From a virus (lineage: Duplodnaviria > Heunggongvirae > Uroviricota > Caudoviricetes): DNA of 6,005 nucleotides. Location: IMG/VR virus record IMGVR_UViG_2698536387_000007, one strand, 5' to 3'. The notes under the pieces were generated by a model, which saw nothing but the letters and a program-made list of their open reading frames with translations, did no database searches and was not told where the DNA came from. Shown here one piece after another: positions 1,393 through 6,001 of this stretch. The translations under genes were made by a program, and so were the position numbers. Within the stretch, counting starts at the first letter, position 1; every line of letters starts with the position of its first letter.

Positions 1393-1461
1393 CTGTTTTC
1401 TCTGCTGGCGCAGCAGGTGCCAGTTGTTCAGGCTGACGGATGGATTGTAAACCAGAACGAC

Positions 1462-1491
1462 CAGAAAAAACAAAACCCGCCGAAGCGGGTT
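1462..1491 (-). terminator. Rho-independent terminator ending the hok transcript
   Basis: On the minus strand: stem AACCCGC, UUCG tetraloop, stem GCGGGUU (1474-1491), followed directly by UUGUUUUUUCU (1473..1462). It sits 30 nt downstream of the hok stop. Confidence 0.8.
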
Positions 1492-1522
1492 AAGTGCGGG
1501 TGCGTTGAGGATGCCTGACACA

Positions 1523-1657
1523 TCAGCGGTGGCGAGGGATTTCTCCCCCGCCTGGTAATCGTACCTCGCAGAGGTCTTTCCTCGTTACCAGTGCCGTCAC
1601 TATGACGGTTAAACAGATGACGATCAGGGCGATTAACATCGCCTTTTGCTGCTTCAT
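1523..1657 (-). CDS. hok: Hok/Gef-family type I toxin, variant with the conserved C-terminal tail replaced (44 aa; possible deletion derivative or pseudogene)
   Basis: MKQQKAMLIALIVICLTVIVTALVTRKDLCEV matches the Hok/Gef/RelF transmembrane region as I remember it. SD AAGGAGAAG lies upstream of the ATG at 1657. The ORF then reads RLPGGGEIPRHR and stops, instead of the family tail (roughly IRTGQTEVAVFxAYE). The track's longer ORF (start 1714) is an in-frame leader extension, mok-like in position. Confidence 0.8.
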   Translation of the reverse strand: MKQQKAMLIALIVICLTVIVTALVTRKDLCEVRLPGGGEIPRHR

Positions 1658-1670
1658 AACCTGCTTCTCC

Positions 1671-1699
1671 TTGCCTTTCGGCGCGTAAGAGGCTAACCT
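1671..1699 (+). promoter_or_regulatory. Candidate promoter for the Sok-like antisense RNA
   Basis: Plus-strand TTGCCT (1671-1676), 17-nt spacer, TAACCT (1694-1699). This is antisense to the hok leader and start region, at the position where the R1 sok promoter lies as I recall it. The -10 is weak. Confidence 0.35.
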
Positions 1700-1705
1700 A
1701 CGTTT

Positions 1706-1780
1706 GTGAAGCATAGATTGGGCCTCAGATTAATGTTAAGCGTCTTGCAGGACGCGTAATGTTAACTGGGGCTTTTCTCT
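1706..1780 (+). ncRNA. sok: Candidate Sok-like antisense RNA (type I antitoxin)
   Basis: Predicted start about 7 nt after the -10. The region is antisense to the hok leader, including the upstream in-frame ATG (1714..1712) and its SD. A structured segment (outer stem CCUCAG/CUGGGG at 1723-1728/1765-1770, inner stem GCGUC/GACGC at 1740-1744/1751-1755) is followed by the U-rich tail CUUUUCUCU (1771-1780). Boundaries are approximate. Confidence 0.35.
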
Positions 1781-1832
1781 GTCTGCCTTACGGTGGCATG
1801 CCCGAGGCAGACAGCCTCAAGCACCCGCAGCA

Positions 1833-1860
1833 ATTCTACTTAACTCTCGCTTTACAGCAA
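1833..1860 (-). promoter_or_regulatory. Candidate sigma70 promoter for the hok mRNA
   Basis: Minus-strand TTGCTG (1860..1855), 16-nt spacer, TAGAAT (1838..1833). The predicted start near 1826-1829 falls at the beginning of the segment complementary to the 3' fbi element. Confidence 0.45.
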
Positions 1861-1900
1861 ACCGTTTTGCCCGATATGGGAATTCCCATACGGAATGAAT

Positions 1901-2005
1901 TCAGTTCCCCAGGCGCTCCATCAAAAACACAACCAGGCAGTAAACACCCACAACAGCAATAACAGCCAGAGCGCCTTCCATTACCAGTGAAATATCATCC
2001 GACAT
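1901..2005 (-). CDS. Putative 34-aa hydrophobic small protein (MSDDISLVMEGALAVIAVVGVYCLVVFLMERLGN)
   Basis: Below the length cutoff of the ORF track. ATG at 2005..2003 is preceded by a strong SD (AAGGGAGGG, 3-4 nt spacer). It encodes one predicted transmembrane helix and ends at TGA 1903..1901. No homolog recognised. Confidence 0.35.
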   Translation of the reverse strand: MSDDISLVMEGALAVIAVVGVYCLVVFLMERLGN

Positions 2006-2114
2006 ATTCCCTCCCTTGGTGTGAATCCCGGCGAACGTTTTTACCCCCACCGACAAATAACATATACTAGAAAAGCAATAGCTATAGCAACGCCTGCAAA
2101 TGCATCTGGCCGGC

Positions 2115-2678
2115 TCATTGGTTCTCCCCCTGTGTCGCTTCTACTGCGATCTGACTGGCGTATTCGTTAATGGTAACGATAAGTTCTTGCTCGACCTCAT
2201 CCAGACAACTACCGATACCTCGCCTGTCCACTTCAGAAGCATCGAAATCTGCACGAAGCCTGGCGACCTTCAGGATTGCGGACAACACCTCATCAGGGAT
2301 TGCCGGAGAGTTGGTTGACGTTTCCGAGATTATCCGAAAATTATTGGTTGACGAACCCTTATTTTCCCGAAAGTTTCCAGCCTGAAGCATGGCGGCGCGG
2401 TGACACCAGATAATCCAGCCAAGCGCCATATCCCATGCCATGTATTCTCTATCGCCATTTTTTGCTCTGCGGCGATCTACAGATTCCCCGAAACGCTTCT
2501 CCATAAATAATTCATAGGCTGCCCGTTCATCCGATACTGATGCCAGTGATGCCAGTGCAATTTTTAATGCGGTAAGCATGTTGTTTTGATCTTCATCGAG
2601 TCCGAACGGTATTTCATCCCGTGATGACTCAATTCCGGTAATCGTGTTCTGTAGCCATTCTTTGGTTAATTCAGTCAT
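2115..2678 (-). CDS. Hypothetical protein, 187 aa
   Basis: Long minus-strand ORF whose ATG at 2678..2676 sits 9 nt downstream of a stable GNRA hairpin. It is separated from the upstream gene by a 126-bp AT-rich gap. No recognisable motif. Confidence 0.6.
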   Translation of the reverse strand: MTELTKEWLQNTITGIESSRDEIPFGLDEDQNNMLTALKIALASLASVSDERAAYELFMEKRFGESVDRRRAKNGDREYMAWDMALGWIIWCHRAAMLQAGNFRENKGSSTNNFRIISETSTNSPAIPDEVLSAILKVARLRADFDASEVDRRGIGSCLDEVEQELIVTINEYASQIAVEATQGENQ

Positions 2679-2686
2679 TTTTCACT

Positions 2687-2704
2687 ACCGCCCTTTCGGG
2701 CGGT
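2687..2704 (-). promoter_or_regulatory. GNRA-tetraloop hairpin in the 5' leader of the 187-aa gene
   Basis: Perfect 7-bp inverted repeat ACCGCCC/GGGCGGT with a 4-nt loop (GAAA on the minus-strand RNA). No U-tract follows on either strand, so it is not a canonical terminator. Confidence 0.4.
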
Positions 2705-2804
2705 CTCCTGATGTTCTGAGGGTGCAGGAATCCCTCCGGTTAAGGATTTAATAAAAATCATTTCTGATTTAAATTTTCAGTGTTTAGTTGTTGGTTTATA
2801 GCCT

Positions 2805-3116
2805 TTATGCTTCGGCCTTATTTCTCAGCCATACACAAACAGGACCATCTTCGGTGTCATGTATCGAACCGATAAACCATCCCTCACCTTCTGGTCGCTC
2901 AGGTTCCCATGCTGAAATATCAGGGCCATCTGCGTCCAGATTAAAATCATCTTCATCCATACTACGGATAGCCCACTGAAGATTATTTTTCTCCATCCAG
3001 GCGTTAAACTCTTCCGTTGAAATATATTCCCGACCATCACAGAATTTTTCATATTCAGGATGCGTCCAGCAGCCATATTCATTACGTTCCACTGGCATTT
3101 CTTTAATTGCGCTCAT
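2805..3116 (-). CDS. Hypothetical acidic protein, 103 aa
   Basis: ATG at 3116..3114 with SD GGGGGG 4 nt upstream; overlaps the stop of the upstream gene (ATGA). Last gene of a four-gene coupled cassette. Confidence 0.6.
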   Translation of the reverse strand: MSAIKEMPVERNEYGCWTHPEYEKFCDGREYISTEEFNAWMEKNNLQWAIRSMDEDDFNLDADGPDISAWEPERPEGEGWFIGSIHDTEDGPVCVWLRNKAEA

Positions 3117-3301
3117 TTACCCCCCTTATTTAATTTTCTACGACACTTTTTACAATCATCTGGACTTTCGAATGTATCCGGCTCACGCTCATTGCCAAAA
3201 TACATCCACCCACCGCAAATACTTGTTATTTCACCTTCAGCAAAATAATGATGTTTTTTCGCCATAAGTGGCCTTGCCCAGCCCGGATTCGTTTTACTCA
3301 C
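3113..3301 (-). CDS. Small Cys-containing protein, 62 aa (possible Zn-ribbon-like)
   Basis: GTG start at 3301..3299 with a strong SD (AAGGAGG, 6-nt spacer). The GTGA overlaps the stop of the upstream gene. Cysteines at SICGGW and CKKCRRK. Confidence 0.5.
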   Translation of the reverse strand: MSKTNPGWARPLMAKKHHYFAEGEITSICGGWMYFGNEREPDTFESPDDCKKCRRKLNKGGK

Positions 3302-3654
3302 TTGTTGCCTCCTTTGCGAAGCTCTGCGACTAACTCGTCACATATGTGCGTCAAAGAGCAAAGTTTGATTGCTGGATGTTCGCGCACCATCTCCACACCC
3401 TGCGCCCGCAATTCTGCCAGAAAAGCGTAGGGGTCAGTTTTTTCACTGTGGTACATGGCATCATAGATAATCATTGCAGCGACACCTGCCTGTCCTGCAT
3501 CTGTGACGGATATATGCTCAAGGGCTACGGCCATTGCGTGTTTCAACCTCTCATTTTCCACCTCAAGCACCACACGATTAGCCTCCAGCTCTTCTATGCG
3601 TTTTTTTGCTGCTCCCAGCTCAACACGCAGCTCCTGATAGTTAATCTCGCTCAT
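3298..3654 (-). CDS. Hypothetical protein with an N-terminal coiled coil, 118 aa
   Basis: ATG at 3654..3652 with a strong SD (GGGAGGAAGGAGA). The ATGA overlaps the stop of the 74-aa gene. N-terminal heptad-like ELRVELGAAKKRIEELEANRVVLEVENERLK. Confidence 0.6.
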   Translation of the reverse strand: MSEINYQELRVELGAAKKRIEELEANRVVLEVENERLKHAMAVALEHISVTDAGQAGVAAMIIYDAMYHSEKTDPYAFLAELRAQGVEMVREHPAIKLCSLTHICDELVAELRKGGNK

Positions 3655-3896: not shown

Positions 3897-4595
3897 TTAC
3901 CCGTTATCTCCTGTCGTTATTTTCTGTATGACATCACGATGCTTATTAATTTCCCGCAGCGCGGCGCATAAGCGCTCCCACTTCTGAACCTGACCTTTTG
4001 CCCGGCGCAGCTCGCGGTTAGCCACATGCAGCGATGGTAAAATCAGACCATCCGGATGCTTTCTGATGAACGACGACTGTGACTGCACTGTGACCGCCAC
4101 ACTTTCAGTTTTAATTTCTTCCTGTGTTTCCGCTTCCCGGACTGGTAACGCAACACCTGCCGGCTGAGGAAAGGCTTTACCATCGGTTTCCGTTACCGAT
4201 GCAGCTTTCGGCTCTGCCGGTAAATTATCGCCCGGTATGCAGTAACGATATTTACCGTCCTGATTTACGCGAATCAGACGACCTTTGCTGACAGCCATCG
4301 CCAGTGATGAATTCGCCCGGCGGGAGGTAATCCCGAACATTAACGCCAGTTCGTCAGCCGACTGAGGACCATGCTGTTCAATCGCGTTAATCAGCATCTC
4401 TGCAGTGGTTTTTGGGGCCGCTTCAGTTGCCTCACTCGTCAGCCACCACATCGACCCCTTGTTATCAGCTTCGCCACGACGCTTCAGCTTCCAGAGTTCG
4501 GTAACAGCATCGTCACGGCTGATTTCAAGACGGGCTGCAATCTCGTGCGACGAGGCTTTTTTCAGTGCTTTCAGTGCGTCAAAAACGGTTTCCAT
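3897..4595 (-). CDS. Winged-helix protein, Ren-like in domain and position (232 aa)
   Basis: Start chosen at 4595..4593 (METVFDALK...) because of the strong SD GGGAGG with 8-nt spacer. The track start at 4661 would overlap the P-like gene by 32 nt. Two winged-helix-like segments; the second ([42 protein letters not shown]) resembles lambda Ren from memory. It sits directly after the P-like gene, as ren does in lambda. Confidence 0.6.
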
Positions 4596-4629: not shown

Positions 4630-5292
4630 TCAGACAAAACCGGCCGCCTTCCGGCGCTCATATTCCTGTTTCAGCAACTCAATTGGCGTTGGCCCTGGCG
4701 GGCGTTTGGGTGCTGCCAGTTGTCGCCGGACTGGCGGAACACTGAGGCCATTACCAACATGCTTTGCCCATTTCGTCAGCTGCCTTTCCACAAGCCGTTT
4801 TAACTCCCCTTCGGTCATCTGGCGCTCAATCCCCTTTGAACGCATCTCGAGGCAAATGTGGTACAGCACCGGCTGTGGCCACGGGTATTTATCACTCCCG
4901 TCGTACCGCCAGGATTCATTCCTCCAGCGACGGTATTCCTCCATCACGGCATCCACCGTCAGGCCAAATGGATTTGCCCCGCTCTCCGAAATCAACGCCA
5001 CAAACTCAGCCAGATCCGGAGGCCACGTTTCACCCGCCCGGCAGCGGTCCATGCACCGACGGCAGATCTGCCGAATTTGCTGTTCAGTCATCGCGCCAAT
5101 CTGAGCAATCCAGAGTTTCGACGGCGCAGCCCCGTTCTTCTGAGTCCAGCGGTTCGAATACACCTCCCCCATAAGCTCCCACAGCTTCCAGGCCGTTTCC
5201 GTTGCTGATAAATCCGTTTTCACGTTCCCACTGTTCGCGTGCAGCCCGGATTTCCTGAACTGCCCGTGATGCGGTGCCACCTGGTGCTGCAT
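4630..5292 (-). CDS. P: Lambda P-like replication protein (DnaB helicase loader)
   Basis: C-terminal two-thirds match lambda P as I recall it (TEQQIRQ..., [21 protein letters not shown], similar length). ATG at 5292..5290 has a good SD (AGGGGGT, 5-nt spacer). This start implies a 208-nt overlap with the O-like ORF; alternative in-frame starts are at 5172 and 5091. Confidence 0.75.
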
Positions 5293-6001
5293 GGCTTACC
5301 CCCTTGCTGACTGGTTTTACCTGTGCCCTGACGTGCTGCACGTGGCGGGCAAATTTCTGCTCCCACTGAACCTGCGTGAAAACCTTCCCCTCCGCCATCC
5401 AGTAATCCCGGAATGCGGCAAGCTCAGCAGGTGTAAACTCAGGCTCAGGCAGAGCCATACCCCACACTGCTGCCCGCTGTCGAAAATCCGGCGACGGTTG
5501 CCAGACTCCAGTCATCGGAAATTTCCCGATCGGTTCGCTCAGGCCGTCCAGGTATTCAGGTTCGGCTGTCTGCAACGACGCGTCATTCAACTCACCGGTC
5601 GTAGCACTCTCGCGCATGCGCGCGTTATGTGTGGGGTTTAATTCTTTATCTGTATCTGTATCTGTCGTGATTTGTCGTGACATATGCGTGACGCGTCGTG
5701 ACTCATCGTGACAATCAGTGTTCTGCTTCCGCAGTCTTTCCCGCTCCCGCTGCGCTCTCTTGCGCTCTGCCGGGGATTTTGCGGTTTGCGAAACATTACC
5801 GTTATCCTCCTTCATCACCTGGCGTTTTTCCCATCCGGAAATAAGATCACCATCCAGAACTCGCCCCTGCATTGCATGCAAAATTGAATCAATCACGTCT
5901 TCCGTCACATCAAGCGCACTTGCTAAATCTTCCGTCGTGACATCAATGTGACCACGTAGTGACACGCCGTGACATGTCGTGACATTTCGTGACGCACTCA
6001 C
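5084..6001 (-). CDS. O-like replication initiator with iterons inside the coding sequence; 5' end may lie beyond the window
   Basis: 305-aa ORF directly upstream of the P-like gene. The visible start is GTG at the window edge and the frame stays open to position 6005, so the true N-terminus is uncertain. An N-terminal HTH-like segment (DLASALDVTEDVIDSILHAMQ) and a basic/TDTD linker are encoded by the iteron DNA. The C-terminal segment is W/F-rich (FRDYWMAEGKVFTQVQWEQKF). Confidence 0.6.
   Translation of the reverse strand: MSASRNVTTCHGVSLRGHIDVTTEDLASALDVTEDVIDSILHAMQGRVLDGDLISGWEKRQVMKEDNGNVSQTAKSPAERKRAQRERERLRKQNTDCHDESRRVTHMSRQITTDTDTDKELNPTHNARMRESATTGELNDASLQTAEPEYLDGLSEPIGKFPMTGVWQPSPDFRQRAAVWGMALPEPEFTPAELAAFRDYWMAEGKVFTQVQWEQKFARHVQHVRAQVKPVSKGVSHAAPGGTASRAVQEIRAAREQWERENGFISNGNGLEAVGAYGGGVFEPLDSEERGCAVETLDCSDWRDD
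5649..5722. repeat. Iteron array A: ori-like direct repeats with GTGA(C/T) core at 10-11 bp phasing, plus flanking ATCTGT repeats
   Basis: GTGA(C/T) begins at 5667, 5677, 5688, 5698 and 5708, with a degenerate copy at 5718. ATCTGT x3 lies at 5648-5665. The array falls in the linker-coding part of the O-like ORF. Confidence 0.6.
5937..5998. repeat. Iteron array B: six direct GTGAC-core repeats at 10-11 bp phasing
   Basis: GTGAC begins at 5937, 5948, 5959, 5969, 5979 and 5989, consensus about GTGACAnnnC, same orientation as array A. It lies at the 5' end of the O-like ORF and encodes the low-complexity residues 1-22. Confidence 0.6.

Follow-up and report, generated by a model that had tools for sequence, protein, structure and literature searches.

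The stretch of DNA analysed here (6,005 nucleotides (nt); Caudoviricetes, IMG/VR record IMGVR_UViG_2698536387_000007; hereafter the window) encodes on its minus strand a hypothetical protein of 187 amino acids (aa) of the WP_000137955.1 type (positions 2115–2678, ATG start). This gene is preceded by an intergenic gap of 126 nt (2679–2804, 40.5% GC) that separates it from a 103-aa gene, is the largest in the gene block and contains two inverted repeats. Most of the repeat-bearing part of the gap belongs to a short conserved cassette found in front of many alternative genes of Escherichia coli prophages, in which a Shine-Dalgarno (SD) sequence, a stable hairpin and a start codon are arranged in a way that suggests a hairpin-bridged, or split, ribosome-binding site (RBS).

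The open reading frame (ORF) and the gap lie where a first-pass annotation, made from the sequence alone, had placed them. That annotation described the gene as stand-alone and as the only one in the block not coupled to its neighbor. The size of the gap bears this out on the 5′ side, but two other junctions in the block are also non-overlapping (34 nt between P and the DUF1627 gene, 21 nt between the DUF1627 gene and a 74-aa gene), and at the 3′ end the TGA of the 187-aa gene overlaps the ATG of a 25-codon ORF (ATGA) that has a strong SD. Similarly, the description of the gap as AT-rich holds for its distal 68 nt (2737–2804, 26.5% GC) but not for the 58 nt bearing the hairpins (57% GC).

Anatomy of the gap

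Read in the direction of the gene, the gap starts with an AT-rich segment (2751–2804, minus strand, as are all elements listed here) that occurs as three sequence types across versions of the gap and has no promoter-like match. It is followed by the pyrimidine stretch UCCUU (2742–2746), whose possible pairing partners are the SD (UCC to GGA) and the 5′ arm of the next element, hairpin 1 (GAGGG, a 9-nt loop, CCCUC). This weak hairpin, the 5′ arm of which (GGAGGG) is itself SD-like, occupies positions 2718–2736, one nucleotide off the 2717–2735 first proposed for the same inverted repeat. The SD proper, AGGAG (2705–2709), directly abuts the 5′ side of hairpin 2 and is located 26 nt from the AUG in the linear sequence, or 8 nt with the hairpin folded out. 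Hairpin 2 (ACCGCCC/TTTC/GGGCGGT, 18 nt, 2687–2704) lies exactly where it was originally described and has a 7-bp stem and, on the mRNA strand, a GAAA loop of the GNRA type. The spacer between hairpin 2 and the AUG, AGUGAAAA (2679–2686), is 8 nt long, not 9 as first reported, and contains no SD-like sequence.

Folded as RNA, hairpin 2 has a predicted energy of −14.1 kcal/mol and a pairing probability of about 1, and hairpin 1 has −5.8 kcal/mol and a probability of about 0.43, with other pairings competing. Perfect 7-bp GC-rich stems number three in the window against 1.1 expected, a count reached by 15 of 100 shuffled sequences, and there are 24 GC-rich 5-bp stems. Thus, the hairpins are unexceptional within the window alone, and their significance comes from conservation elsewhere rather than from window statistics.

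A 28-codon upstream ORF (2675–2761) spans both hairpins and ends in ATGA on the start of the 187-aa gene. This ORF probably has no function, since it lacks an SD and its ATG is replaced by ACG or GTG, or is absent, in other versions of the cassette.

A portable cassette precedes many unrelated genes

The conserved part of the gap, which we term the long cassette, comprises 65 nt (2686–2750, minus strand) with a mean column identity of 96% over 49 distinct variants and the core AATCCTTAACCGGAGGGATTyCTGCACCCTCAGAACATCAGGAGrCCGCCCGAAAGGGCGGTA. A BLAST search matched the gap in 2627 of the 5426 complete E. coli genomes, in up to six places per genome. In most of these genomes, the match is confined to about 73 nt with both hairpins (~94% identity), and directly precedes different genes, namely, those for DUF7167 family proteins and Q-family antiterminators. 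About 170 instances of the cassette came from pattern scans of IMG/VR, in which the anchor lay either between the hairpins or on hairpin 2 by itself. In these contigs, the start codons 5–10 nt downstream of the cassette belong to at least seven unrelated gene families, among them DUF7167, two small membrane proteins, the MTELTK family, a Q-like antiterminator and the MQEIKE family. In relatives, alternative genes thus occupy the slot behind the cassette, which suggests that genes are replaced there and not simply inserted. Between the upstream stop codon and the conserved cassette, other versions of the gap have only about 27 nt.

The cassette also has a short form, which consists of a stop codon, TGTC (4 nt), (A/G)GGAGG, hairpin 2, 5–8 nt and the start codon; hairpin 1 and the AT-rich part are missing. 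It follows a 70-aa gene and is placed ahead of some of the alternative genes that are also served by the long form. Five contigs (L020, L046, L085, L095 and L165) contain two copies about 1–1.7 kb apart, usually one long and one short, and such direct repeats of the SD-hairpin unit could excise or swap the intervening genes. The paired copies each precede a different small gene; those of L085 are found at 7506–8592.

Stx2a phages, ArgO145 for example, carry the cassette as well, and in phage mEp460_4F5 it lies in the leftward early region, accompanied by the 103-aa gene and by a gene of the MAELTK type related to the 187-aa gene. None of the records that carry the cassette annotates it. A GTDB scan for the cassette flanks, with one genome per species, yielded only Shigella flexneri and one probably misbinned metagenome-assembled genome; the cassette therefore appears to be young and restricted to Escherichia and Shigella.

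Several unrelated genes that follow the cassette have similar first codons, M-x-E/T-L/I-T-K-E (MTELTKEW, MAELTKEQ, MEITKERL and MQEIKENI; contigs L003, L004, L054 and L063 and the window), which suggests that the recombination joint may reach about eight codons into the coding sequence.

Geometry of the SD, the hairpin and the start codon

With the hairpin alone as the anchor, GGAG or GGGG was found directly 5′ of the stem in all 56 distinct contexts. The distance from the hairpin to the start codon is 5–8 nt in 26 of 29 distinct junctions; in the other three, all in front of Q-family genes, it is 10 nt, and two of these have a GGAG of their own in the spacer. Genes behind the cassette otherwise have no SD between the hairpin and the start. 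For the 187-aa gene, the place usually taken by the SD contains only the 8-nt spacer given above, and the nearest SD is the AGGAG abutting the hairpin. Nine of the 12 other listed genes of the block have a G-rich SD 4–9 nt before the start. In mEp460 and JLK-2012, the homolog of the 187-aa gene belongs to a different operon, lacks the cassette and has an ordinary SD, AAGGTGA, 7–8 nt before its ATG. All six natural variants of the 33–35-nt minimal unit that were folded are predicted to form the hairpin (−8.4 to −15.5 kcal/mol) and to leave the SD and the AUG unpaired.

These observations suggest the following scheme. The 187-aa gene would most likely be transcribed by read-through from the early rightward operon. 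Its mRNA would carry a strong SD directly 5′ of the very stable 7-bp GNRA hairpin, with the start codon 5–8 nt past the hairpin. A linear distance of 23–26 nt between SD and AUG is too long for initiation; folding of the hairpin would cut it to 5–8 nt, so that the 30S subunit could use the upstream SD, and translation would be driven by this hairpin-bridged SD. The cassette would double as a linker for gene exchange, because one sequence of 26–65 nt in front of many alternative genes, sometimes twice in the same phage, provides a homology patch for gene swapping. We put the probability that the cassette is a split RBS also serving as a recombination joint at roughly one half.

Conservation of the hairpin in RNA

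Over the 49 distinct variants, 98% of the cells in the stem of hairpin 2 are paired. Changes in the stem are one-sided and nearly all of the C-to-U type, which gives G·U pairs on the mRNA strand and A·C mismatches on the opposite strand; a function of the antisense strand is accordingly unlikely. The loop is GAAA in 42 distinct variants, GGCA in four and UAAA in one, that is, GNRA in 46 of 47. In hairpin 1, 98.8% of the cells are paired, with three G·U changes, although the common GATGG variant breaks the pairing. UCCUU shows no variation across the cassette variants. The RNAalifold consensus includes a 3-bp UCC/GGA helix enclosing hairpin 1 (columns 5–7 with 43–45), and the pair probability of UCCUU is about 0.35; UCCUU is a possible SD-masking partner, but the pairing could also be noise. 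The short form of the cassette lacks the part containing UCCUU and hairpin 1.

Shuffling controls were uninformative at 96% identity, and, given the low divergence, conservation of structure among such relatives is weak evidence. A compensatory replacement of G-C by A-U at stem position 4 (GCCACCC...GGGTGGT) occurs in more diverged E. coli copies, those of strain EC7518 and seven IMG/VR loci. Altogether, the pattern of changes favors a hairpin formed by the sense-strand RNA, with thin covariation.

Several points weigh against a split RBS. Predictions for the complete leader leave the SD single-stranded just about 10% of the time, since pyrimidine stretches compete for pairing, and this could point to repression instead of enhancement. 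The alignment of 49 variants contains no compensatory changes, the one described above having been found only later, and the corresponding A·C-mismatch variant, which still folds (−10.1 kcal/mol), is present in 14 loci compared with seven for the compensated form. Given the restriction to Escherichia and Shigella and the 96% identity, conservation of the SD-hairpin unit may reflect shared ancestry plus recombination rather than selection. Finally, the A-rich spacer could support SD-independent initiation.

Alternative explanations

In one alternative account, the cassette is kept solely because homologous or relaxed recombination among prophages reuses it as a joint; the hairpin and the SD would be idle in expression, and the genes would start without an SD on the A-rich spacer. 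The junctions of the mosaic coincide exactly with the edges of the cassette, two copies lie about 1 kb apart in the five contigs, the taxonomic range is narrow and the identity high; moreover, lambdoid mosaics are often bordered by residual homology patches (PMC3945230) and T4-type phages shuffle genes via repeated intergenic cassettes (PMC2839356). This account leaves unexplained the constant presence, in the joint, of an SD fused to a stable hairpin with SD-like spacing to the start codon, the bias of stem changes towards G·U on the mRNA strand and the lack of SDs of their own in the downstream genes when a homolog elsewhere has one. We consider it unlikely as a full explanation and regard recombination as a second role beside the split RBS rather than an alternative, the two not being mutually exclusive. 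A more far-reaching proposal would make the 65-nt cassette a previously undescribed portable translational control module of E. coli and Shigella lambdoid prophages. The availability of the hairpin-bridged SD would then be set by competing pairings among UCCUU, the GGAGGG arm and the SD, or by a GNRA-binding factor, and the module would have been copied ahead of many accessory genes as a shared post-transcriptional switch and a recombination joint; this we find distinctly unlikely. The hairpin might instead be an intercistronic stability or processing element that shields the upstream mRNA from 3′ exonucleases, or the downstream part after cleavage in AU-rich sequence, and so sets segment-specific mRNA levels. 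Its high stability, the AU-rich sequence on either side and its position right behind the stop codon in the short form are compatible with such a role, but the fixed 5–8 nt to the next start and the invariant SD fused to the stem would have no explanation, and we judge this role improbable.

An operator for an RNA-binding regulator, with either a boxB-like GNRA hairpin or the UCCUU/GGAGGG/AGGAG pairings acting as a switch by which a phage or host factor represses or activates translation or modifies the transcription complex, would account for the retention of the GNRA loop and for the invariant UCC stretch that can pair with the SD. In lambda, the boundary between the replication genes and the nin region, where the cassette lies in the window, is the position of tR2. 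Such an operator is nevertheless quite improbable: boxA (CGCUCUUA) is not present in the gap within one mismatch and no N-like arginine-rich ORF was found in the leftward early region of the prophage, which also excludes a lambda-type nut site; the element is distant from the early promoters; and the short cassette serves the same genes without UCCUU and hairpin 1. Nor does the sequence fit the ops element of RfaH, the 12-mer of which, GGCGGTAGnnTG, is replaced in the window by GGCGGTAGTGAA and was found in none of 35 distinct variants, with the 8-nt core present in 10 of the 35. The least probable explanation is the one offered in the first-pass annotation, an independently regulated moron that has a private promoter, located in the AT-rich gap, and a separate 5′ untranslated region. 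The gap is indeed the largest in the block, with the AT-rich distal part noted above, and the genes in the slot differ among prophages. However, a consensus scan of the gene strand in three versions of the gap, that of the window included, detected no sigma-70-like promoter; no terminator-like site flanks the 187-aa gene, the sole one within 1400–3400 being at 1474–1491; and there is no compositional island, the GC content of the gene being 47.7% and the profile in 200-nt segments of the window (40–57%) showing no step at the gene borders. The short distance that other versions leave between the upstream stop and the cassette also speaks against a moron, as does the SD-hairpin unit located 4 nt past a stop codon, a distance too short to accommodate a promoter. 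In addition, the protein belongs to a standard early-region family and matches common lambdoid early and nin-region proteins, the kind of ordinary relatives that the annotation itself had named as evidence to the contrary. What survives of that proposal is a translational element in the leader, which is plausible but would belong to a portable leader shared by many genes rather than to this gene alone.

Other classes of elements were considered for the gap. Intrinsic termination is rejected, since neither hairpin runs into a U-run (the sequence past hairpin 2 is AGUGAAAAAUG, that past hairpin 1 AGAACAUCAGG) and the terminator scan was negative for the gap. A search of Rfam was likewise negative for 2679–2804 at E-values up to 1; its only matches, to sok and a weak one to isrK, lie elsewhere in the window. 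The anti-sRNAs AgvB and AsxR of enterohemorrhagic E. coli (EHEC) prophages, considered for the C/A-rich stretch at 2775–2795, are likewise rejected, given the lack of an Rfam match in the gap and their location downstream of PR′ (PMC4104026). No published transcript-start data were located for the locus. The 3′ arm of hairpin 2 plus AG, GGCGGTAG at 2685–2692 of the minus strand, equals the 8-nt ops core on the non-template strand.

Comparison with known systems

The closest parallel to the proposed split RBS is found in phage T4, where a hairpin reduces the spacing between SD and AUG from 22 to 5 nt in gene 38 and from 27 to 11 nt in gene 25, enhancing initiation (Nivinskas et al. 1999; Malys and Nivinskas 2009; reviewed in PMC3014915). 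As in these genes, the SD of the cassette lies over 20 nt upstream of the AUG, the spacer is taken up by a stable hairpin, no SD occupies the normal position and the folded spacing (5–8 nt here, from 23–26 nt) is of a functional length. The T4 sites, in contrast, are gene-specific, belong to one conserved gene junction each and were proven by mutation and probing, whereas the cassette, the function of which we infer, is portable, precedes at least seven unrelated genes in temperate lambdoid prophages and has a GNRA loop.

T4-type phages also contain PeSL elements, which combine an early promoter with a terminator stem-loop (PMC2839356, PMC4122927). The cassette resembles these in being a short conserved intergenic stem-loop that is repeated within a genome beside variable non-essential small genes, and is a plausible substrate for shuffling. 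In contrast to PeSLs, it has no promoter or terminator motifs, and its conserved parts are the SD and the hairpin abutting the start codon.

Lambda nut boxB likewise has a GC stem with a GNRA-type loop in an early transcript (GCCC-GAAA-GGGC in hairpin 2 compared with GCCCU-GAAAA-AGGGC in lambda). Unlike boxB, hairpin 2 has a tetraloop instead of a pentaloop, is promoter-distal and is fused to an SD and a start codon.

If the cassette is a split RBS, a mechanism described for two T4 genes would extend to temperate lambdoid prophages, about half of the sequenced E. coli would use a single cassette for many unrelated accessory genes, and gene callers and RBS-based start predictors would misjudge such starts. 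The novelty is modest, as this would be a further instance of a split RBS with portability as the twist. The cassette would also mark sites at which EHEC prophages exchange accessory genes, and it offers a simple test case of a structured spacer between SD and AUG; practical consequences are modest.

The 187-aa protein

As the first-pass annotation had stated, no domain is recognized in the 187-aa protein. It has no significant match in Pfam, NCBIfam or PADLOC, with neither the DUF551 (PF04448) nor the Ead_Ea22 signature found by Pfam; the PHROG matches are only to families of unknown function, and a PDB profile search gave nothing below E 0.48. A search of 5.8 billion proteins, however, returned 4276 relatives, nearly all of them E. 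coli prophage proteins labeled ‘DUF551 domain-containing’, with E-values of 1e-50 to 1e-76 between the 187-aa protein and the N-terminal modules of DUF551-domain prophage proteins. At the DNA level, the N-terminal half is 97% identical to genes annotated as EaA, Ea22 or DUF551 in phages JLK-2012, 1720a-02, mEp460 and PAS61, and the N-terminal modules of the protein share 90–97% identity with the proteins so annotated. The homolog of JLK-2012 and mEp460 is located in the leftward early (exo-xis) region.

The alignment reveals a mosaic layout composed of a leader (aa 1–46), module B (aa 47–99), which ends in the linker motif RAAMLQ, a low-complexity linker (aa 100–127) and module C (aa 128–180). 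Relatives run on from there via a further linker into DUF551, whereas the 187-aa protein terminates in TQGENQ. The same ending is found on proteins with a different N-terminus (P0094), which argues for a stable allele rather than a random truncation. AlphaFold2 was run twice, on alignments of 25 and 69 sequences; both models are all-helical, with disorder in the 100–127 linker, and their mean confidence (pLDDT) values of 49 and 51 make the all-helical fold a low-confidence prediction.

Ea22-type proteins are mosaic, with DUF551 as one portable C-terminal domain (PMC10834534). The 187-aa protein resembles the Ea22, EaA and DUF551 proteins of lambda and Shiga toxin (Stx) phages in being small, acidic, largely helical and modular, with modules swapped at short conserved linkers, and differs from them in the lack of DUF551 and Ead_Ea22 and in its location in a rightward (nin-like) operon instead of exo-xis. 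By these alignments, the 187-aa gene looks like ordinary mosaic cargo, that is, a domain-shuffled accessory gene of a lambdoid prophage most kin of which end in DUF551. A role as a non-essential host-interaction factor, by analogy with Ea22/EaA-type early proteins, is only a guess.

Prophage context and gene order

A prophage of strain 493/89 of E. coli O157:H7 matches the window at 100% identity, with the sole exception of an alignment gap of about 60 nt at 1557/1558. This prophage is lambdoid and integrated beside tRNA-Ser and mtfA. Every gene of the window is on the minus strand. Upstream of the gap are an O-like replication gene (ending at 5084), P (4630–5091), the DUF1627 gene (3897–4595) and four small genes of 74, 118, 62/50 and 103 aa; the last of these, directly upstream of the gap (2805–3116), belongs to phrog_1372, a PHROG with no assigned function.

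Downstream of the 187-aa gene, the overlapping 25-codon hydrophobic ORF (2041–2118), which has the SD GGGGGAG 6 nt upstream of its start and no PGAP annotation, is followed by a 34-codon hydrophobic ORF with a strong SD (WP_001278460.1, 1901–2005); both possibly encode small membrane peptides. Next are a hok/sok locus (1523–1826), with the Rfam sok match at 1652–1826 (114.9 bits), and the intrinsic terminator after hok (1474–1491 plus a T-run). Beyond the terminator, the window contains a phrog_1212 gene and then DUF968, and the genome record continues with RusA and Q. The replication genes O and P on one side and Q on the other therefore place the 187-aa ORF in the nin-like part of the prophage.

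The ~60 nt missing from the window relative to the O157:H7 genome fall in the 3′ part of hokD, the rest being identical. The Hok of the window has 44 aa and ends in ...CEVRLPGGGEIPRHR, compared with 51 aa in HokD, and this altered end has probably inactivated the toxin. The isrK-like Rfam match (1470–1551, 27 bits, against a gathering score of 50) overlaps the terminator at 1474–1491 and is probably just the terminator of the hok mRNA.

Within the O-like gene, CGTGAC forms eight repeats at a phase of about 10 nt (5676–5712 and 5936–5993). The window as a whole has 11 copies of this hexamer against 3.0 expected, a number reached by no shuffled sequence, and the repeats look like replication-origin iterons of the lambda type. 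The lowest-energy local fold of the gene strand in the entire window lies at about 1324–1353, inside the phrog_1212 coding sequence, with −24 kcal/mol in 30 nt.

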